A DNA stretch of 10,080 nt. It comes from a virus. Both the position numbers and the translations under genes were made by a program. The notes under the pieces were generated by a model. The model saw only the letters and a program-made list of their open reading frames with translations. It ran no database searches and was not told the origin of the DNA. Shown here piece after piece: positions 1,286-9,835 of the stretch (position 1 is the first letter of the stretch; every line of letters begins with the position of its first letter). The stretch is taken from UHGV virus genome UHGV-1553573, one strand, 5' to 3'.

Positions 1286-2068
1286 TTACTTGATAAATCC
1301 TGCCGCCTTTCCCCGCCTGTATTCCTCCATCAGCCACTGCGCCGGTGTTATTCCCCCAAGGGTGGCGGCGTTAGGCATGCACCCGAAACTTCGCCCTGGT
1401 GGATGGTAAACGTCTCTCCCTGTGTCCGGAGGTGTACTCATGGGCTCTCGCTTTGCCTGTATGCCGATCACCGGATCGGGTATCTGCTGTCCGGAAGCTA
1501 CCTTTTTCGCCCAATCATCGAGCAGCCTGCGCGCGTGTTTCTCAACCTCAATCTCGCTAAGCTGGCGCTGATACATTGCACGGCGGGTATCACATACGAC
1601 CCAGTACATAACCGGATGTCGCCACGGGAATCTTTCGGGACCACCAGGATATAAACTTTTTTCCTTGCTGTACCGGTGAAACTCCGCCATCACATCGTCA
1701 ATGGTGACGCCAAGAACCATCTTGCTGTCTTTGCACCACTTGATGAATTGCCCTGGCGACGGCCAGAACGGAGATTCACTGGCGCGGGCGTGGCGCATAC
1801 CAGCGTTAACCTGTTCCATTGTTGTGATCCCATTCTCCAGAAACGCAAGCATCCATTGTTTTCGAAATTCGTTTAGCTTTCCTTGCTCGCTGATAGCAGC
1901 GATGCTGCCTGGAAATGCAGCCTGTAACTGGACAAACATTTCGTTGAAAATTCTTGCAACCTGCTCCTTCTTTGCCCTTTCATCGTCAGCAGAAGCAACC
2001 GCCGTCGAGTGGTCATGCCCACCACGAAAGCGATCGTACTCATTAAGAAGTTCTGGAGTTGATTTCAT
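1286..2068 (-). CDS. Lambda P-like replication protein (DnaB helicase loader family)
   Basis: Translation contains WMLAFLENGITTMEQVNAGMR and FWPSPGQFIKWC, which I recall as closely matching lambda P; it sits immediately downstream of and overlapping the O-like gene. Start moved from the track's 2080 to the ATG at 2066-2068 (MKSTPELL), which has GAGGTG 5-8 nt upstream. Confidence 0.8.
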   Translation of the reverse strand: MKSTPELLNEYDRFRGGHDHSTAVASADDERAKKEQVARIFNEMFVQLQAAFPGSIAAISEQGKLNEFRKQWMLAFLENGITTMEQVNAGMRHARASESPFWPSPGQFIKWCKDSKMVLGVTIDDVMAEFHRYSKEKSLYPGGPERFPWRHPVMYWVVCDTRRAMYQRQLSEIEVEKHARRLLDDWAKKVASGQQIPDPVIGIQAKREPMSTPPDTGRDVYHPPGRSFGCMPNAATLGGITPAQWLMEEYRRGKAAGFIK

Positions 2069-2894
2069 CCCACACCTCATCTATCCAGTCAGTGTTATGC
2101 CAGTCAAGGCTCTTTCTGACTTCACCTGATTTCTGTCTACAGAACTGGATGCGCCTTGCCAGCTTCTGCTCCCACTGTGCCTGATGGTATGCCTTACCCT
2201 CAGCCATCCAGTAAATTCTGAACTCTGCAAGTTCCTGTGCCGTTGGCAGACTGTCCAGGTAGATTCCCTGCAATGAGCTTTTCCGAAGAAAGTCATCTGA
2301 TGGCTGCCATTGTTCATGCATGACAAATTTGCCTAATTGCCCTGGCCCACCAGGAGGAACAAAGTTATTCATCACGGCGTTGTTTGCGCCGGGGTCATGA
2401 GGCACAGAATCCCCGGTTTTTGTCCTGCTCTCCCTCTCTTGGTTAAATGACTGGTTATATGACTGGTTCTGGATCCCGTTTTTGGGATCATTCAACATCC
2501 CGTTTTTGGGATCATTCAACATCCCGTTTTTGGGTATATTCCCGTTTTCGGGAACATTACCGTTTTCGGGAACATTACCGTTTTCGGGTTCATTACACCC
2601 TTCTAGGTCGCCTTTAATGTTCCCGTTTTTGGTTATATTAAGAGAGAAAACCCGCACTCTTTTTGTCGCTCCCTTTCTCTCTCCGGTATCTGAAATAAGC
2701 CCCATTTTCATGAGCGATATAAGTCCGGCCTGCACGGTTTTTTTATTCAGGCAAGTGTCTTTAACGAGGCGTTCTATGCTGGGGTAGCAGAGGTTATATT
2801 CATCGGCTCTGTCAGCCATCGAGAGCAGTATGAGCTTTAATGATGAGCTACCTGGATCTGTCTCCCAGGCCCAATCTGTTGCATGTCTGCTCAT
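2043..2894 (-). CDS. Lambda O-like replication initiator (iteron-binding origin protein)
   Basis: 283-aa ORF with GGAG 9 nt upstream of the ATG at 2892-2894; its central part is encoded by the iteron array and gives the peptide repeats NGNVPENGNVPENGNIPKNGMLNDPKNGMLNDPKNG; followed by the P-like gene with a 26-nt overlap, as in lambdoid O-P pairs. Confidence 0.8.
   Translation of the reverse strand: MSRHATDWAWETDPGSSSLKLILLSMADRADEYNLCYPSIERLVKDTCLNKKTVQAGLISLMKMGLISDTGERKGATKRVRVFSLNITKNGNIKGDLEGCNEPENGNVPENGNVPENGNIPKNGMLNDPKNGMLNDPKNGIQNQSYNQSFNQERESRTKTGDSVPHDPGANNAVMNNFVPPGGPGQLGKFVMHEQWQPSDDFLRKSSLQGIYLDSLPTAQELAEFRIYWMAEGKAYHQAQWEQKLARRIQFCRQKSGEVRKSLDWHNTDWIDEVWDEINSRTS
2472..2640. 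repeat. Replication origin iterons inside the O-like gene
   Basis: About seven direct repeats with core CCCGTTTT(T)GGG: three at 24-bp spacing (2472, 2497, 2521) with palindromic arms GATCCC/GGGATC, three at 18-19-bp spacing (2541, 2560, 2578) with arms TTCCCG/CGGGAA, and one more at 2621-2640. On the O-coding strand they read TCCCAAAAACGGGA, resembling the lambda ori iteron as I recall it. A flanking ATGACTGGTT direct repeat lies at 2447-2456 and 2459-2468. Confidence 0.75.
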
Positions 2895-3491: not shown

Positions 3492-3645
3492 AGCTATTGC
3501 CTGATATTTATTTCAGATAATAAATATTCACCCATAAGGTAACAAAAATCAAGGATAGTTACCTATGGGGTGCATTTACCTGTTGGGTAATATTGCTTTA
3601 AATTGAATCATCTACTGATTCATATATGAGGCGATTTTCCAGAAA
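3492..3645. promoter_or_regulatory. Divergent promoter/operator region between the Cro-like and repressor-like genes (OR-like)
   Basis: Three clustered palindromes of the TTACC-N5-GGTAA family at 3528-3542 (TCACC CATAA GGTAA), 3559-3573 (TTACC TATGG GGTGC, degenerate) and 3576-3590 (TTACC TGTTG GGTAA, perfect); a perfect 9-bp AT-rich inverted repeat at 3504-3512/3519-3527; AT-rich hexamers usable as -10/-35 on both strands. Confidence 0.6.
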
Positions 3646-4230
3646 ATGAAAAGTATCCAGGACGTCCGCAGGCAAAATCTCAACGACTTGATCGACCGTG
3701 AATTCAATGGTGTTCAGACGCGGATGGCAGAAAAACTTGGAACTCAGGCAAATCTGGTAAACCGCTGGGCTCTTGGCAAGAAGGTTATCGGCGACCAGGT
3801 TGCACGAAAAATTGAAGCTGCCGCCAATAAACCCCGTAACTGGCTTGATATCGATCGCTCGCTTTCTCAGGAAGGTTTTCAGCCTGTCGGCCCAAGCGAC
3901 ATTGGTCAGCTGGCGGCTCACAACCTGGAACGCTGGATGAGCGAAAGCCGCGACCTTTCAACGCAGGGAAAACTTCACCGCGCATCCGGCGTCGCCCAGG
4001 TGACAATCAGTCGCCTGTTAAACAATGAGGTCAGCGTTTCCATTTCCACCCTGGAGAATGTTGCATCCGCATTCGGGCGTCACGGCTATGAATTACTGAT
4101 TCACCCGCACGACCCTGCGACCATCAACTATGACCGCTCGCGCTACGCATTGTTACCCGAAACCGAGAAAGCAAAGATCGAAAGTTACATTGAATTTGTC
4201 ATCAACCAGAACGAAAAAAACAAACAATAA
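3646..4230 (+). CDS. Tandem helix-turn-helix (XRE-type) repressor-like protein, 194 aa, with no peptidase domain
   Basis: Two HTH-like segments: QTRMAEKLGTQANLVNRWALGKK near the N-terminus and ASGVAQVTISRLLNNEVSVSISTLENVASAFG in the second half. No S24-peptidase-like C-terminal domain is apparent. Sits in the cI position; weak or absent Shine-Dalgarno before the ATG at 3646. Confidence 0.7.
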   Translation: MKSIQDVRRQNLNDLIDREFNGVQTRMAEKLGTQANLVNRWALGKKVIGDQVARKIEAAANKPRNWLDIDRSLSQEGFQPVGPSDIGQLAAHNLERWMSESRDLSTQGKLHRASGVAQVTISRLLNNEVSVSISTLENVASAFGRHGYELLIHPHDPATINYDRSRYALLPETEKAKIESYIEFVINQNEKNKQ

Positions 4231-4250: not shown

Positions 4251-4277
4251 AAGCCGCCTTCTGGCGGCTTTTTTATT
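4251..4277 (+). terminator. Rho-independent terminator after the repressor-like gene
   Basis: 8-bp stem AAGCCGCC / GGCGGCTT (4251-4258 and 4263-4270, loop TTCT) followed by TTTTATT; 21 nt after the stop codon. Confidence 0.7.
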
Positions 4278-4287
4278 GCCTATACTA

Positions 4288-4364
4288 TTACCTAATGGGT
4301 AATTTTTTTAACTCATATCTATTGACATCAAACCAAATACGCATAATTATTACCTCAACGGTAA
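4288..4364 (+). promoter_or_regulatory. Strong rightward promoter with two flanking operator palindromes (OL/PL-like)
   Basis: Perfect -35 TTGACA at 4322-4327, 15-16 nt spacer, then ATAATT/TAATTA at 4343-4349; perfect palindromes at 4288-4302 (TTACC TAATG GGTAA) upstream and 4350-4364 (TTACC TCAAC GGTAA) over the predicted start site. Confidence 0.6.
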
Positions 4365-4538: not shown

Positions 4539-4838
4539 ATGAACGTTAATCAGCAGAAAAATCTTCAAAAAATCATGCTGGCATTCGACAAGGACTACCG
4601 CCTGTCAGAACAGCTATATGACCGACAAGTTGAACTGATCGAGAGCATCCGGCTTCATCAACTGGCCTCAACTTTTGACGCTGTAACAGGCAAAGGAGTT
4701 CGCCAGGAAGTGCTGGAGGCAGCTAAAGACAGCCCTGAGTTCGAAGAACTAATGGATGCCTGCCGGCGCGAGGCAATGGCAATTATCGCCCGCTGGGATC
4801 TGGCTGATCAGCTTGATGGGCAGAGGGACGCGGCATGA
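4539..4838 (+). CDS. Hypothetical protein, 99 aa, translationally coupled to the exonuclease gene
   Basis: ATG at 4539 preceded by GGGAGGG at a 6-nt spacing (preferred over the track start at 4524); its stop overlaps the exonuclease start as ATGA (4835-4838). Confidence 0.55.
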   Translation: MNVNQQKNLQKIMLAFDKDYRLSEQLYDRQVELIESIRLHQLASTFDAVTGKGVRQEVLEAAKDSPEFEELMDACRREAMAIIARWDLADQLDGQRDAA

Positions 4839-5656
4839 AACCGGGAATTTATTTCGACATCAGCAACGAAGACTACCACGCCGGTGACGGCGTGAGTAAG
4901 TCGCAACTGGACATGGTTGCCAAGAATCCAGCGCTTCTTAAATGGGTTCAGGCAGCACCAGAAGACGAAGAGAAAAAGTCTGCACTGGATATGGGAACCG
5001 CATTGCACTGTCTGCTTCTGGAGCCTGGAGAGTTCGACAAACGCTTCATTGTTTCACCGAAATTCGATCGTCGGACGAAACAAGGTAAAGCTGACGAAGA
5101 GGCATTTCTTCGTGATGTAGCGGATATGGGGATTACGGTACTTGATGCCGAGCAGTGGCGGAAACTGGAGCTGATGCGTGATAGCGCAATGGCTCACCCG
5201 GCGGCACGCTGGATGCTGGAAGCACCTGGTTACTGCGAAGCATCAATGTACTGGAACGATGAAGAGACGGGTGAGTTGTGCCGAATTCGTCCAGACAAAT
5301 GGCTGAACGAGCACAACGTGATCGTCGACGTGAAAAAGGTTGCAGATATGGACCGTTTTGCACGTCACATCGAGGAATTCCGCTACCACGTGCAGGACGC
5401 AATGTACCGCGAAGGCGCAATGAGGGTTACTGGTCAGCCGCATGGTTTTTTCTTTCTTGCCGTGAGCGAAAGCATTGATTGTGGTCGGTATCCGGTACGC
5501 GTGTTCGGGCTGGATGCGCCGGATGTCGATGCCGGGCACGCTCTGTTCCGCCGGGATCTGAATACCTATCACGAATGCCGCATCAGCGATGAATGGGGCG
5601 GCGTGGAAATTATTAAACGCCCTGAGTGGGCACGCAAACAGGATATGTACGTATGA
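4835..5656 (+). CDS. RecE-like / RecB-family PD-(D/E)XK exonuclease (phage recombination exonuclease), 273 aa
   Basis: Motifs IRPDKW, then VIVDVKK, then QDAMY (Q-x-x-x-Y), matching the D...D-x-K plus QxxxY signature of RecB-family nucleases; immediately upstream of and overlapping the annealing-protein gene. Confidence 0.75.
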   Translation: MKPGIYFDISNEDYHAGDGVSKSQLDMVAKNPALLKWVQAAPEDEEKKSALDMGTALHCLLLEPGEFDKRFIVSPKFDRRTKQGKADEEAFLRDVADMGITVLDAEQWRKLELMRDSAMAHPAARWMLEAPGYCEASMYWNDEETGELCRIRPDKWLNEHNVIVDVKKVADMDRFARHIEEFRYHVQDAMYREGAMRVTGQPHGFFFLAVSESIDCGRYPVRVFGLDAPDVDAGHALFRRDLNTYHECRISDEWGGVEIIKRPEWARKQDMYV

Positions 5657-6570
5657 GCAACGAAATTGCAATCACCAATGATGTGTTGGCTATTCGGGGA
5701 ATCGATGAAGTTACATGGAGCGCTCTGAAAAACAGTATTTACCCTGGGGCAAAAGATGAATCGGTAATGATGGCAGTCGATTACTGCCGGGCGCGTCAAC
5801 TCGATCCTCTTCTTAAGCCGGTACACCTGGTACCAATGAGTGTTAAAGACTCGAAGAGTGGAAAGAATGAATGGCGCGACGTGGTCATGCCTGGCATTGG
5901 ACTTTATCGCATTCAGGCCTACCGTTCCGGCGATTACGCAGGCGCTAATGAACCTGAGTTCGGTCCAGATGTAACACAAACGCTTTCAGGCGTGGAGGTT
6001 ACCTTCCCTCAGTGGTGTAAGTACACCGTCAGCAAGCGAATGGCAAGCGGGGAAATCGTAGAGTTTAGCGCCAAAGAATACTGGATTGAGAACTATGCAA
6101 CTGGGGGGCGTGACACATCGGCACCAAATGCCATGTGGAAAAAGCGCCCTTATGCGCAGTTGGCAAAATGCGCAGAGGCACAGGCATTACGTAAAGCATG
6201 GCCGGAGATTGGTCAACAAGCCACAGCTGAGGAAATGGAAGGTAAATATATCGACTCACCTGACATTATTGAACGTGACGTAACTCCAAGAAGTCAGGCA
6301 AAGCACGGCACAGCATCCAGCATGAACAGTCTGATCAACGCTAAACCAGTGAAAAAGCATGATGAGCAAACGCGTAAAGCGGATAGCCGTGATCCAGAAG
6401 AAATGCTGATGGCCTTTACCAGCGCAGCGATGAATTACAGCACTGTCTCCGAACTGGATAAGGCTTACAAATACATTGCACAAAAACTTTCAGATGATGA
6501 CGAACTGCTGGCAAAAGCCACCGACGTTTACAGCGTTCGTCGGGAAGAATTAAACGAAACATCTATGTAA
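5653..6570 (+). CDS. Bet/RecT-family single-strand annealing protein, about 305 aa
   Basis: The segments AVDYCRARQLDPLLKPVHLVPM and PNAMWKKRPYAQLAKCAEAQALRKAWPE parallel conserved regions of lambda Bet as I recall them. Start placed at the ATG at 5653, which overlaps the exonuclease stop (ATGA) and has AGGA upstream; the track's GTG at 5626 is less likely. Confidence 0.75.
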   Translation: MSNEIAITNDVLAIRGIDEVTWSALKNSIYPGAKDESVMMAVDYCRARQLDPLLKPVHLVPMSVKDSKSGKNEWRDVVMPGIGLYRIQAYRSGDYAGANEPEFGPDVTQTLSGVEVTFPQWCKYTVSKRMASGEIVEFSAKEYWIENYATGGRDTSAPNAMWKKRPYAQLAKCAEAQALRKAWPEIGQQATAEEMEGKYIDSPDIIERDVTPRSQAKHGTASSMNSLINAKPVKKHDEQTRKADSRDPEEMLMAFTSAAMNYSTVSELDKAYKYIAQKLSDDDELLAKATDVYSVRREELNETSM

Positions 6571-6578
6571 CCACCACC

Positions 6579-6597
6579 GCGGCGCCACGTGCGCCGC
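6579..6597 (+). other. GC-rich hairpin with no U-tract, between the annealing-protein gene and the AlpA-like gene
   Basis: GCGGCGC (6579-6585), loop CACGT, GCGCCGC (6591-6597): a perfect 7-bp stem 9 nt after the stop; no T-run follows. Confidence 0.4.
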
Positions 6598-6619
6598 ACT
6601 GCAACCAAGAGAGGTATTC

Positions 6620-6868
6620 ATGAAAGGTGCATTAGGTAAGAAAGAACTCCTGGCGGTGGTGCCACTGTCATGGAGCACTATCGACCGTATGGAGCGCGCA
6701 GGGGAATTTCCTAAACGCTGGTATATCACCGATAAACGCTGCGCATGGAACCGTGATGAAGTTGAGCGTTGGCTTGATGAACGTCAGGCAGCAAGCCCGG
6801 CAGAGTTCCAGGGTAAAAAGCCTCCTGTTCAGCAACGTGTATATCGTCCCGTGAGCAACGCTGCATGA
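6620..6868 (+). CDS. AlpA-family phage transcriptional regulator / excisionase-like DNA-binding protein, 82 aa
   Basis: LLAVVPLSWSTIDRMERAGEFPKRWYITDKRCAWNRDEVERWLDE fits the AlpA/Xis-type pattern (S-x-S-T-I, FPK, W...EV..WL); AGAGAGG 5 nt upstream of the ATG. Confidence 0.7.
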   Translation: MKGALGKKELLAVVPLSWSTIDRMERAGEFPKRWYITDKRCAWNRDEVERWLDERQAASPAEFQGKKPPVQQRVYRPVSNAA

Positions 6869-6977
6869 GTGCGCTGCTAAGGCACTGGAGCAAATGGTCA
6901 GGATGGTACTTATTCCTGGCCTCTGTTTCAGCATGGCTTTATCTGCTGGCATTAATTTTCAGAGAGGGTTGGATTAA

Positions 6978-7277
6978 GTGAGAAAGTTAAGCCGACTTGA
7001 AAAATATCACATGAATAAGGTTTCAATGCGCAGTCCGTCAAAGATTGTCGCCGTTACTCCTGCGGCGATAGAGATCGAAAAACGCGCGATTGAAAGAGAG
7101 AAAAAAGGGCAATTCCGCATTGCCGCTCACCTTTGGCTTCAGTGTATGGATGTTGCTTCTGGTGATGTTGAACGTGCAAGGATCGCGGTTCGCAGGGACC
7201 AATGTATCACAAAAGGTAACGGCCTTCGCCGTGGCGACTATAGCGGCATAGGATGTTGTGGGGTGGTTTATGACTAA
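6978..7277 (+). CDS. Hypothetical protein, start uncertain (GTG 6978, ATG 7011 or ATG 7026)
   Basis: ORF track entry; GAGAGGG about 9 nt upstream of the GTG; its last codons overlap the methyltransferase ATG by 8 nt. Confidence 0.45.
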   Translation: MRKLSRLEKYHMNKVSMRSPSKIVAVTPAAIEIEKRAIEREKKGQFRIAAHLWLQCMDVASGDVERARIAVRRDQCITKGNGLRRGDYSGIGCCGVVYD

Positions 7278-7920
7278 GAAATACACACTAATCTATGCAG
7301 ATCCACCCTGGGTATACCGGGACAAAGCCGCAGATGGTAATCGCGGTGCCGGTTTTAAATATCCGGTTATGAGTGTGCTGGATATCTGCCGCCTTCCTGT
7401 GTGGGATTTGGCCGATGAAAACTGTCTGTTGGCCATGTGGTGGGTGCCAACACAACCACTCGAAGCACTAAAAGTTGTTGAAGCCTGGGGATTCCGTCTG
7501 ATGACGATGAAGGGCTTCACGTGGATAAAATGTGGTAGTCGACAACCAGATAAACTGGTTATGGGTATGGGACACATGACTCGCGCCAATAGTGAAGATT
7601 GCCTGTTTGCGGTAAAGGGAAAACTACCTACGCGCATTAATGCAGGGATCGTTCAGTCATTTACCGCACCGCGGCTTGAGCATTCAAGAAAGCCAGATAT
7701 CGTTCGTGAAAAACTTGTGCAATTATTAGGCGATGTTTCTCGCATTGAACTGTTCGCCCGCCAGACGTCTCATGGCTTCGATGTTTGGGGTAATCAGTGC
7801 GAAGACCCGGCAGTGCAACTACACCCTGGATACGCGTTGGATATCGGCGGATTAACAAATGCATTCAGCAATGCTCCGCTGTCACCAACAGACAACCAGG
7901 GGCGGGAGCGTGCAGCATGA
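7270..7920 (+). CDS. MT-A70-family N6-adenine DNA methyltransferase with no restriction partner in the window
   Basis: N-terminal [10 protein letters not shown] (DPPW catalytic motif) and later EHSRKP, both typical of this family. Start placed at the ATG at 7270 ([14 protein letters not shown]) rather than the track's GTG at 7258; stop overlaps the phosphatase start. Confidence 0.75.
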
Positions 7921-8576
7921 ACCTATATCAACGCATCAATGGCGCTGACTGGTGCAATATCTTCGTCGTCGGCGATCTGCATGGGTGCTACACGCTGCTG
8001 ATGAACGAACTCGACAAAGTTTCATTCGACCCGGCGCGCGATTTGCTTATTTCCGTTGGTGACCTTGTTGACCGCGGCGCTGAAAACGTCGAATGCCTGG
8101 ATTTGATTACTATGCCGTGGTTCCGAGCTGTTCGTGGCAACCATGAGCAGATGATGCTGGATGCACTGGTCAACGGCGGAAGTTTCGGACATTGGATGTC
8201 AAACGGCGGTGGATGGTGGCACCAACTTGATTCTGAGCAGGATGTGCAACTCAAATACCTTCTGCCAAAGGTTACCAACCTCCCGATGATTATCGAACTG
8301 GTTACCGGCAATAAGAAGGTCGTCATCTGCCACGCAGACTACCCGCACAACGAATACGCATTCGATAAGCCAGTACCGGAAGAAATGGTGATATGGAATC
8401 GTGAGCGGGTTAGCGACGCGCAGGACGGTATTGTCTCGGAGATAACCGGTGCCGATTTGTTCATCTTCGGTCATACGCCAGCACATCACCCACTGGTGTA
8501 TGCAAACCAAATGTACATCGACACCGGCGCAGTGTTCTGCGGAAATCTGACGCTTACCAAAGTCCAGGAAGGATAG
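7917..8576 (+). CDS. Lambda-type Ser/Thr protein phosphatase (PPP-family metallophosphatase), 219 aa
   Basis: GDLHG, GDLVDRG and GNHE motifs plus the extended run [17 protein letters not shown]...[14 protein letters not shown]...VICHADYP...FIFGHTP...[16 protein letters not shown], which matches lambda phosphatase as I recall it. Start at the ATG at 7917, overlapping the methyltransferase stop (ATGA). Confidence 0.85.
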
Positions 8577-8578
8577 AA

Positions 8579-9835
8579 TTATTTATTACTGTCTTCCATC
8601 CACTTCTCAAACTTCGACGGGGAGAACGGAATCAGATCCGTATGCTCCCCGTTAATCCAGGAATCAATCATATCGGCCCACTGCTGCAACATGTAGGCGC
8701 GCTGTCTGGCGTATTCCGCTTTGTTATATACGGCGCGCACACCTTTCTGCTCGTGTGCCAGAGCCTTTTCAATCCAGTCTGAAGGATAACCAGCCTCATG
8801 CAACAATGTACTGGCTGTACGGCGCATATCATGTACAGTAAAATCCTGAATATGCTCACCATCTTCATTTATTATTTTCACCGTTCTGTCGATCAGAGAG
8901 TTCAGCGCGGCATTAGATAATGGCTTCCGGAAATTGTAACGACCAGGAACCAGATATTCACTTCCACCAGCGCACATCTGCAACCCGACTAATATATCCT
9001 GTGCCTGTTTAGGCAGGTAAATAACGTGCGCCCGACTTCCCTTCATGCGGTCTGAAGGAATTGTCCATGTCCATTTTTTAAAATCTATTTCATCCCACGT
9101 TGCATTGGTGAATTCTCCCTTACGAACCATGGTGATAAGCACCAGCTTTAAAGCCATTTTCATAGTGCCCATAGCACCAATGGCATCCAGCGTGCGGAAG
9201 AACAGGCCAATTTCTTCTGGTGTCAGTGTTCGCTCTCGTGGTTTAAATATGGCGATAGACGAAGGTTTAATGTCAGCCGCAGGATTAAACAAACCATGAC
9301 CACGGTCATTGGCGTGACGGTATACGCTGCTGATGATCTCCCTGGCCTGTACTGCTGTTGCCCGACCACCGCGTTCGACAATCCGGTCACACAAATCACG
9401 AACCATTGATGTGGTAATTTCAGCCATCATTTTGTTGCCAAGAACCGGAAGTATGTCACGGTCGATCACCGCCTGCTTCATTGCGCGGGTACTGTCAGCC
9501 AGGATGACGTGTTTCATATAACTGTCGGTATGTACCGCAAACGTCTCGGCACCACGAATCTTTTTAATACCGTCACGTTTAGCCGCAGCCGGTGACTGGC
9601 CTGCTTTAAGCAGCTTCTTTGCAGCAATCAGTTCTTCTCGCGCTTCTGCCAGGCTGATACCGTCACGCCCATACTGCCCGATTACCAGTGTTTCGCGGCG
9701 ACCGTTGATACGGTAGTCATAGCGAAACGAGACCGTGCCTGACGTAAGCACAGCTACATACAGCCCGTCACGATCGGAGACCTTGTACAGTTTGTCCTGC
9801 GGCTTGAGGTTTTTTAATTTTGTATCGGTAAGCAC
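8579..9835 (-). CDS. int: P4-type tyrosine integrase, 418 aa
   Basis: N-terminus LTDTKLKNLKPQDKLYKVSDRDGLYVAV is typical of P4-like integrase arm domains; C-terminal HDMRRT ... ALAHEQKGVRAVYNKAEY fits the H-x-x-R ... Y catalytic region. GTG start at 9833-9835 with GGGTGA upstream; convergent with the phosphatase gene, 2 bp apart. Confidence 0.85.
   Translation of the reverse strand: MLTDTKLKNLKPQDKLYKVSDRDGLYVAVLTSGTVSFRYDYRINGRRETLVIGQYGRDGISLAEAREELIAAKKLLKAGQSPAAAKRDGIKKIRGAETFAVHTDSYMKHVILADSTRAMKQAVIDRDILPVLGNKMMAEITTSMVRDLCDRIVERGGRATAVQAREIISSVYRHANDRGHGLFNPAADIKPSSIAIFKPRERTLTPEEIGLFFRTLDAIGAMGTMKMALKLVLITMVRKGEFTNATWDEIDFKKWTWTIPSDRMKGSRAHVIYLPKQAQDILVGLQMCAGGSEYLVPGRYNFRKPLSNAALNSLIDRTVKIINEDGEHIQDFTVHDMRRTASTLLHEAGYPSDWIEKALAHEQKGVRAVYNKAEYARQRAYMLQQWADMIDSWINGEHTDLIPFSPSKFEKWMEDSNK

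Follow-up and report, generated by a model that had tools for sequence, protein, structure and literature searches.

Do a DNA methyltransferase and a protein phosphatase belong together when their genes share overlapping stop and start codons at the end of a prophage, or have they met there through ordinary exchange of genes? This question is raised by the virus genome UHGV-1553573, of which a stretch of 10,080 nucleotides (nt) was analyzed (in the following, "the window" denotes this whole stretch). Next to its integrase gene, three genes follow one another on the plus strand at positions 6978–7277, 7270–7920 and 7917–8576. A first-pass annotation had described them as a hypothetical protein, an MT-A70 adenine methyltransferase and a lambda-type Ser/Thr phosphatase, fused into one operon. 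All three genes are indeed present, the first two overlapping by 8 nt (ATGACTAA) and the latter two by 4 nt (ATGA), and their placement beside AlpA and the integrase is borne out.

The sequence places the locus in a very common type of E. coli prophage, a Uetakevirus (epsilon15/phiV10-like) element beside guaA, the early operon of which ends here on the integrase-proximal side. Annotated E. coli chromosomes contain a 2.2 kb segment spanning the trio with 100% identity, as one end of a podovirus-type prophage beside guaA. All three proteins belong to known, annotated families, and RefSeq already annotates the PerC-like, methyltransferase and phosphatase genes in the 100%-identical genomes. Two deposited phages and about 3% of complete E. 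coli genomes carry the element. The locus as such is ordinary prophage cargo, already covered by public annotation. We consider it quite probable that this early-left operon comprises a conserved unit of a PerC-like gene and a methyltransferase gene, followed by an interchangeable slot which in the window is occupied by a nin-type phosphatase gene, and that the methyltransferase and the phosphatase are not a dedicated enzyme pair.

Gene exchange downstream of the methyltransferase

The phages phiV10 (p36–p31), epsilon15 (gp33–gp28) and vB_EcoP_PAS61 share with the window the gene order AlpA, a membrane open reading frame (ORF) of 38 amino acids (aa), PerC-like gene, MT-A70 gene and convergent P4-type integrase gene. 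Phage phiV10 is 98–99% identical to the window up to the stop codon of the methyltransferase gene. The homology breaks off exactly after ...GCAGCATGAA, at a cargo junction (7913–7922, plus strand) where homology to nin-region phosphatases starts; a DUF1382 gene begins at the same ATGA in phiV10, in place of the phosphatase gene of the window. Epsilon15 is about 75% identical, with an extra gene (gp30) between the PerC and methyltransferase genes and a different gene after the methyltransferase gene. Among deposited phages, the phosphatase allele is limited to vB_EcoP_PAS61 and BP9, which are 98.4–98.5% identical to the window over the whole trio.

Close relatives were represented by the 80 nearest viral contigs, the methyltransferases of which are 98–100% identical to that of the window. 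At the same ATGA, the slot holds DUF1382 in 55 of these contigs, the phosphatase in 19, and an 82-aa ORF together with an AntA-like gene in 6. The junction of methyltransferase and phosphatase occurs in 144 of 5426 complete E. coli genomes, while a junction of methyltransferase and DUF1382 is seen instead in sampled entries among the roughly 540 records matching the junction query with at least 95% identity. Conversely, 145 of the 146 records with the phosphatase allele of the window also carry the methyltransferase–phosphatase junction, and the next nearest phosphatases beyond this allele are nin-region genes with approximately 79% identity in DNA.

A species-level set comprised 38 loci with methyltransferases 55–87% identical to that of the window. 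A metallophosphatase gene directly downstream of the methyltransferase gene was found in none of these 38 loci; RusA, NinH, Q and others are located there. Only 2 of 50,697 phage records contain the pair, and the adjacency is confined to one E. coli Uetakevirus prophage lineage, all members of which are at least 98% identical. The only other phosphatase within 3 kb belongs to a lambdoid nin region in Ewingella (locus L021, 2549–5773), with the order NinB, MT-A70, NinE-like ORF, NinI (49% identical) and NinG, and a gap of 0.9 kb between MT-A70 and NinI. In this locus both genes are ordinary nin cargo.

A functional tie between methyltransferase and phosphatase, as suggested in the first-pass annotation, is hence unsupported, given that the same ATGA junction carries at least three alternative alleles. 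The comparison with other prophages, in which a conserved pair should have been recognizable, essentially refutes it as well, as the adjacency is absent from the 38 other species. Their juxtaposition is ordinary mosaic cargo exchange, in which the phosphatase gene is one of several interchangeable genes.

A different explanation would be that an orphan methyltransferase directed against restriction and a phosphatase directed against kinase-based signalling or defence form a co-adapted counter-defence pair, the ratio of which would be fixed through translational coupling. All copies seen have the arrangement intact and show purifying selection, as such a pair would, but DUF1382 or other genes take the place of the phosphatase gene at the same ATGA in about three quarters of the sister prophages. 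One shared transcript, the ATGA overlap and a GGGAG Shine-Dalgarno sequence before the phosphatase start would also be in line with coupling; however, every neighbouring gene is joined by the same type of overlap. In favour of the pair, prophage modules of a kinase and a phosphatase that affect defence do exist (PMC11341870). The exchange at the junction and the generic overlaps, together with the lack of such a pair in the other species and its near-absence from the phage records, nevertheless make a counter-defence pair improbable in our view.

In the 82 related copies compared, all three genes are intact, with ratios of nonsynonymous to synonymous polymorphism (pN/pS) of 0.07 for the PerC-like gene, 0.13 for the methyltransferase gene and 0.11 for the phosphatase gene. 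Each of them is therefore probably functional; the pairing of methyltransferase and phosphatase is still a lineage-specific cargo allele.

Some observations weigh against the reading of a conserved unit with an interchangeable slot. More than 140 complete genomes carry the phosphatase allele in intact form, without exception at this site, which is compatible with a selected benefit of the arrangement. As the Ewingella locus illustrates, MT-A70 and NinI can share one lambdoid nin operon, and co-expression of the two is not unique to the lineage of the window. The nucleic-acid target is disputed even for the studied homologue of the methyltransferase from the Stx phage PA8 (see below). Finally, our promoter and terminator scans are crude and may leave room for an internal promoter, such as the stationary-phase promoter reported for the PA8 genes gp6–gp5.

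The phosphatase

The gene at 7917–8576 (plus strand) encodes a protein of 219 aa that belongs to the lambda-type (PPP-family, NinI-like) Ser/Thr phosphatases (Pfam Metallophos, E = 1.2e-15; PHROG 246, "NinI-like"). The proposed identity is confirmed by a colinear alignment with the lambda phosphatase 1G5B, which runs from end to end with 145 of 217 residues identical (67%; E = 7e-100). The residues D20, H22, D49, D52, R53, N75, H76, H139 and H186 are identical to those of 1G5B in 9 of 9 cases, and the PPP signature motifs GDxHG, GDxVDRG and GNHE are present. Scores against the PrpA and PrpB equivalogs (NCBIfam NF008516 and NF007425) stay under the cut-offs, with 266 bits versus 326 and 222 bits versus 332, respectively, and PADLOC returned no match of the phosphatase to known defence systems. 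The protein is predicted to be a lambda-type, Mn-dependent enzyme of nin-region ancestry, which would be active and would act independently on phosphoproteins.

The nin region was correctly named as the usual home of such phosphatases, and homologues are located there in HK225, phi80 and the Ewingella locus. NinI/orf221 of lambda sits between ninH and ninG, whereas the phosphatase gene of the window is part of a podoviral early-left operon, where it lies between methyltransferase and integrase, and not between replication genes and Q as nin-region genes do. The GC content at third codon positions (GC3) is 0.61 in the phosphatase gene, but 0.44–0.46 in the two genes ahead of it (PerC-like and methyltransferase), in keeping with a separate origin of the phosphatase gene. 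No nin-region copy above approximately 79–89% DNA identity, as expected of a recent donor, was found in E. coli genomes or phages.

The methyltransferase and its studied relatives

The middle gene (7270–7920, plus strand) encodes an MT-A70 (beta-class) N6-adenine methyltransferase of 216 aa, as had been recognized from its translation. The match to PF05063 (E = 2.6e-22) reaches 80 bits against a cut-off of 23.9, with residues 5–176 covering positions 1–172 of the 172 positions in the profile. The catalytic motif IV, DPPW, is located at residues 11–14 within IYADPPWVY (residues 8–16), and full-length alignments were obtained with MT-A70 structures, namely ciliate MTA1-type proteins and METTL3. 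The enzyme would thus be catalytically competent, placing N6-methyladenine (m6A) on nucleic acid.

The nearest studied relative is gp5 of the Stx phage PA8 (M.EcoPA8orf6770P), with 156 of 187 residues identical (83%; E = 4e-124). The alignment ends at residue 187, and the last 29 residues are unrelated. PA8 gp5 forms a 1:1 complex with PNB-2, the product of the gene immediately upstream; this complex favours 16S rRNA more than 13-fold over DNA and raises spontaneous induction in dependence on the DPPW motif, which was mutated to APPA in that study (PMC10810198). The C-terminal region of PA8 gp5 has been suggested to be important for formation of the holoenzyme with PNB-2 (PMC10810198). The highly similar M.EcoGV methylates GATC if overexpressed alone (noted in PMC10810198) and is listed with GATC specificity (PMC6602927).

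The locus of the window resembles the gp6–gp5 locus of PA8 and M.EcoGV (E. coli O104:H4) in the DPPW motif, in the integrase-proximal site and in a small upstream gene that overlaps the start of the methyltransferase gene; downstream of the latter, PA8 carries DUF1382, like phiV10. It differs in that PA8 is a lambdoid Stx phage and the element of the window a podovirus. The small upstream genes differ as well, PNB-2 being a protein of 143 aa with a predicted winged helix and the PerC-like protein one of 99 aa, helical and without detectable similarity to PNB-2: BLASTP of the two gave no alignment at E up to 100, and phmmer found no PNB-2 homologue in any locus examined. The PA8-type C-terminal tail (approximately 27 residues) is missing from the methyltransferase of the window. 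In the loci compared, tail length and adjacency to PerC show no clear correlation.

The first-pass annotation had regarded the enzyme as a classic anti-restriction device. A cognate restriction endonuclease gene is indeed lacking: neither neighbour of the methyltransferase gene is a nuclease, and the minus-strand ORFs inside the three genes, which gave no match in a Pfam search and are therefore treated as spurious, do not provide one. In PADLOC the methyltransferase matches only generic models of type II methyltransferases, a class which, without a restriction gene, would suit a counter-defence pair. An anti-restriction function is nevertheless not established, and it is not the best-supported reading, because the 83%-identical homologues have been reported to act on 16S rRNA or GATC. 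The host Dam of E. coli supplies GATC methylation. If GATC were the target as with M.EcoGV, this mark would already be provided by the host, which further speaks against a counter-defence role.

The PerC-like protein

The first gene of the trio (6978–7277, plus strand, GTG start) need not be called hypothetical, since Pfam and PHROG place it in the PerC family of small proteins. Its product of 99 aa matches the PerC profile (PF06069) with 30.1 bits versus a cut-off of 22.6, covering only positions 5–50 of the 90 positions in the profile, and PHROG 868 with E = 1e-51. Its score against the ANR family NF033650 is under the cut-off (24.2 bits versus 32), and PADLOC returned no match of the protein to known defence systems. 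RefSeq puts the start at ATG 7026 (83 aa), but the 99-aa form from GTG 6978 is favoured by alignment with the ATG of epsilon15, by 37 homologues and by the 99-position PHROG profile; the N-terminus is conserved, and a start at 6978 results in a GTGA overlap with the upstream ORF. The AlphaFold2 model displays a helical bundle (residues 28–80) and a disordered tail with a conserved YSGI motif. A Foldseek search of this model versus the PDB gave no match at E < 1, listing generic three-helix bundles only.

The founding members of this family, PerC of enteropathogenic E. coli (EPEC) and Pch of enterohaemorrhagic E. coli (EHEC), are transcription activators of the locus of enterocyte effacement (LEE), and switch on LEE1 in EPEC and EHEC. 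They share with the protein of the window the PerC domain over cut-off and the character of a small helical protein. In contrast to them, the subfamily of the window has a YSG[IV] tail and directly precedes DNA methyltransferase genes, a position that is not reported for PerC/Pch in the literature searched.

A possible PerC-like companion of phage DNA methyltransferases

A gene of the PerC family is located upstream of the methyltransferase gene in 14 of the 38 species-level loci, and in the enzyme tree the PerC-linked methyltransferases are spread over three or more clades. In unrelated prophages outside of Uetakevirus, the PerC-like gene directly abuts the methyltransferase gene, sometimes as a fusion of a winged helix and PerC. 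In Uetakevirus-like prophages of other genera the two are often split by 0.15–1.2 kb, which contain gp30-like ORFs, a DndB-like gene or weak PD-(D/E)XK-like genes. If the PerC-like gene is taken as the starting point for choosing loci, the linkage is seen from the other side, although the sampling on this side is small and in part seeded from methyltransferase-containing loci: in 12 of 13 viral contigs a DNA methyltransferase gene comes next, overlapping the stop codon of the PerC-like gene by 4–8 nt. These methyltransferases belong to MT-A70, D12-class Dam, phage Dam (PF05869; alone or fused to a PAPS-reductase-like domain) and a fusion of C5 and Dam. Among the intact genomic contexts of further PerC-like genes, a D12, Dam or C5 methyltransferase gene is adjacent or one gene away in 3 of 4, whereas the PerC-like gene of the fourth prophage has no methyltransferase gene beside it; the remaining genomic contexts fetched are decayed remnants or contig ends. 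The peptide encoded at the junction of PerC and methyltransferase is conserved (G-V-V/L-Y/N-D-stop over M-T-x), as is the YSG[IV] motif. The literature searched contains no paper on a link between PerC and methyltransferases, and none with both PerC and MT-A70.

The PerC-like gene is, by this data, the recurrent companion of the methyltransferase gene, and the linkage suggests that the two may form a functional module. The PerC-like protein could control expression of the methyltransferase, or bind the enzyme and direct its target, with the phosphatase as a bystander. The conserved junction and the retention of the YSGI motif in an otherwise disordered tail point in this direction, as does the linkage to at least four methyltransferase families (MT-A70, D12, phage Dam, C5). 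PA8 gp5 requires the upstream-encoded PNB-2 (PMC10810198), which may serve as a precedent, though the PerC-like protein has no sequence similarity to PNB-2. Since the methyltransferases partnered with PerC-like genes span unrelated families, a fixed structural subunit appears less plausible than a controller.

Several observations argue against such a working pair. Epsilon15-like phages have other genes between PerC and methyltransferase, the intact prophage mentioned above retains a PerC-like gene without methyltransferase gene, and the founding proteins activate LEE transcription. The PerC-like gene could also be a conserved flank of a cargo hot spot. On balance, we tentatively propose, as a possibility that falls somewhat short of an even chance, that a PerC subfamily (...G.YRRAA..WL..D...R..RR..C...YSG[IV]) specifically accompanies orphan DNA methyltransferases of phages, and controls their expression or binds and directs them; the PerC-like protein would be the counterpart of PNB-2 at this locus, and the phosphatase independent cargo.

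The family name may rather suggest that the PerC-like protein is a prophage-borne activator of host genes, i.e. a lysogenic-conversion "moron" like PerC/Pch that is unrelated to the enzymes encoded downstream. The Pfam score over cut-off as well as the labels of PHROG 868 and RefSeq, which both read transcriptional activator, agree with this notion. The gene is, however, situated inside a repressor-controlled lytic operon without a promoter-like site of its own, and it also occurs in many non-LEE strains and in other genera. The AlphaFold2 model is a plain helical bundle without significant match to DNA-binding folds, and the strong linkage to methyltransferases would be left unexplained. We therefore regard a moron activator as rather unlikely, and a companion of the methyltransferase as the preferable account of the PerC-like protein.

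Restriction-modification controller (C) proteins and the com-mom genes of phage Mu offer a parallel, in that a small gene lies upstream of, and overlaps, a DNA-modification gene. Controller proteins regulate restriction-modification systems, and Com controls mom in phage Mu. We understand this likeness as a functional analogy only, and not as a family assignment.

Further loci of this kind were noted. PerC-like genes with a YSG[IV] tail stand right before genes for D12 Dam, phage Dam (PF05869), fusions of PAPS reductase and Dam, or C5 cytosine methyltransferases in prophages of lambdoid type, just after the replication genes (L138, 2441–4896; L141–L149, 2489–4244; L150/L151, L157 and L158). 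In Acerihabitans (L044, 2520–3801), two tandem small PerC/ANR-like genes are located ahead of an MT-A70 protein of 267 aa. A protein of 297 aa combining PerC and MT-A70 (P0123, 97% identical to the genes of the window, 3 member sequences) was rejected as a natural fusion; it probably results from a frameshift in the 8-nt overlap.

Inserts between PerC and methyltransferase that overlap the start of the latter are present in Citrobacter, Scandinavium and Klebsiella (L013, 1937–3004; L010, 2417–2995; L014, 2492–2998). One of these genes is DndB-like (DGQHR), while the others resemble PD-(D/E)XK genes weakly, with scores under the Pfam cut-off. In Pseudescherichia (L012, 2513–3004), the start of the methyltransferase gene is overlapped by a gene for an HNH/NUMOD4 endonuclease, and a PerC-like gene was not detected at this locus. 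Weak PD-(D/E)XK-like genes in this overlapping position are thus present in some relatives from other genera, unlike the window, in which no restriction gene is adjacent. Nuclease-like genes in this position might form pairs resembling restriction-modification systems with the methyltransferase.

The probable early-left transcript and its overlapping genes

A putative early-left promoter is located at 4286–4364 (plus strand), with TTGACA (4322) and AATTAT (4350) spaced by 17 bp between two operator-like repeats of 17 bp (TATTACCTAATGGGTAA and TATTACCTCAACGGTAA), located at 4286–4302 and 4348–4364. A terminator-like hairpin (4251–4270) is found just after the repressor gene, and epsilon15 has annotated repressor-binding sites at the position equivalent to 4286–4364. 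Upstream of the repressor gene, the divergent promoter region (3526–3592) also contains related copies of the operator-like repeats.

A pattern scan found no promoter-like or terminator-like site on the plus strand between approximately 4400 and 8576, and a scan of 6400–8900, again without a plus-strand site, gave no support for a separate moron promoter of the trio. As the promoter at 4322–4350 is followed by no such site before 8576, the trio is probably the tail of one repressor-controlled early-left transcript. On infection or induction, a single long transcript would start at approximately 4322–4350 and run through the recombination genes, AlpA, the 38-aa peptide, the PerC-like gene, the methyltransferase gene and the cargo slot, with ribosomes being handed from gene to gene via the stop/start overlaps.

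AlpA, the 38-aa ORF and the PerC-like, methyltransferase and phosphatase genes are all chained through overlaps of 4–8 nt. The 8-nt overlap of PerC-like and methyltransferase genes is present in 78 of the 80 close relatives, and Shine-Dalgarno-like sequences precede positions 7270 (GGGGTGG) and 7917 (GGGAG). However, overlaps are found at nearly every junction of the operon, upstream genes included, and the alleged fusion is therefore generic packing and not the mark of a special trio. From the earlier claim of co-expression at a fixed ratio, co-expression remains likely, as no internal promoter or terminator was found on the plus strand, whereas coupling at a fixed ratio reduces to the usual packing of an operon.

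The stop codons of the phosphatase gene (8576) and of the integrase gene (8579, minus strand) are 2 nt apart, without a terminator between them. The early-left transcript would consequently run antisense into int, and could down-regulate the integrase.

Neighbouring genes

The operon follows the order repressor (3646–4230), small ORFs, PD-(D/E)XK exonuclease, RecT, AlpA, 38-aa ORF, PerC-like gene, methyltransferase gene and cargo, and meets a convergent integrase gene. The AlpA-family excisionase or regulator (6620–6868, plus strand; Pfam PF05930, PHROG 66 and the annotation of phiV10 and epsilon15) is the first link in the chain of overlaps. It is followed by the 38-aa ORF (6865–6981, plus strand), overlooked in the first-pass annotation, which encodes a predicted membrane peptide (MSALLRHWSKWSGWYLFLASVSAWLYLLALIFREGWIK) and corresponds to gp32 of epsilon15 and p35 of phiV10. 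This ORF overlaps both of its neighbours, through ATGA with the AlpA stop and through GTGA with the PerC start, and is kept in phiV10, epsilon15 and prophages of other genera (tblastn). Position 6894, from which the operon was said to start, falls within this ORF and is no gene boundary. The P4-type tyrosine integrase (8579–9835, minus strand) is convergent with the operon and is followed by guaA in the host.

The recombination module upstream of the trio (4835–6570) is also mosaic among otherwise identical prophages; in two of the loci (L129 and L131, 723–2654) a YqaJ exonuclease and a RecT of 340 aa replace the DUF3799 exonuclease and the RecT of 313 aa. The DnaT-like replication protein (2043–2894, minus strand) contains a run of short Asn/Gly/Pro-rich repeats (NGNVPENGNVPENGNIPKNGMLNDPKNGMLNDPKNG). 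A search of the whole window against Rfam gave no match.

Implications

Near-identical prophages with a phosphatase, DUF1382 or other genes at one and the same junction represent a natural allelic series. With this series, the benefit of a lambda-type phosphatase to a phage could be examined cleanly, a question that lambda itself also raises.

The linkage of PerC and methyltransferase is the only part of this analysis that goes beyond present knowledge, and we consider it a modest lead. It is the PerC-like gene, and not the phosphatase gene, that merits inclusion in work on the methyltransferase, because this pairing recurs across methyltransferase families. The 83%-identical enzyme of PA8 shifted its substrate preference when co-expressed with its upstream gene. 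If the proposed companionship is true, the PerC family would originally have served in connection with methyltransferases rather than in virulence regulation.

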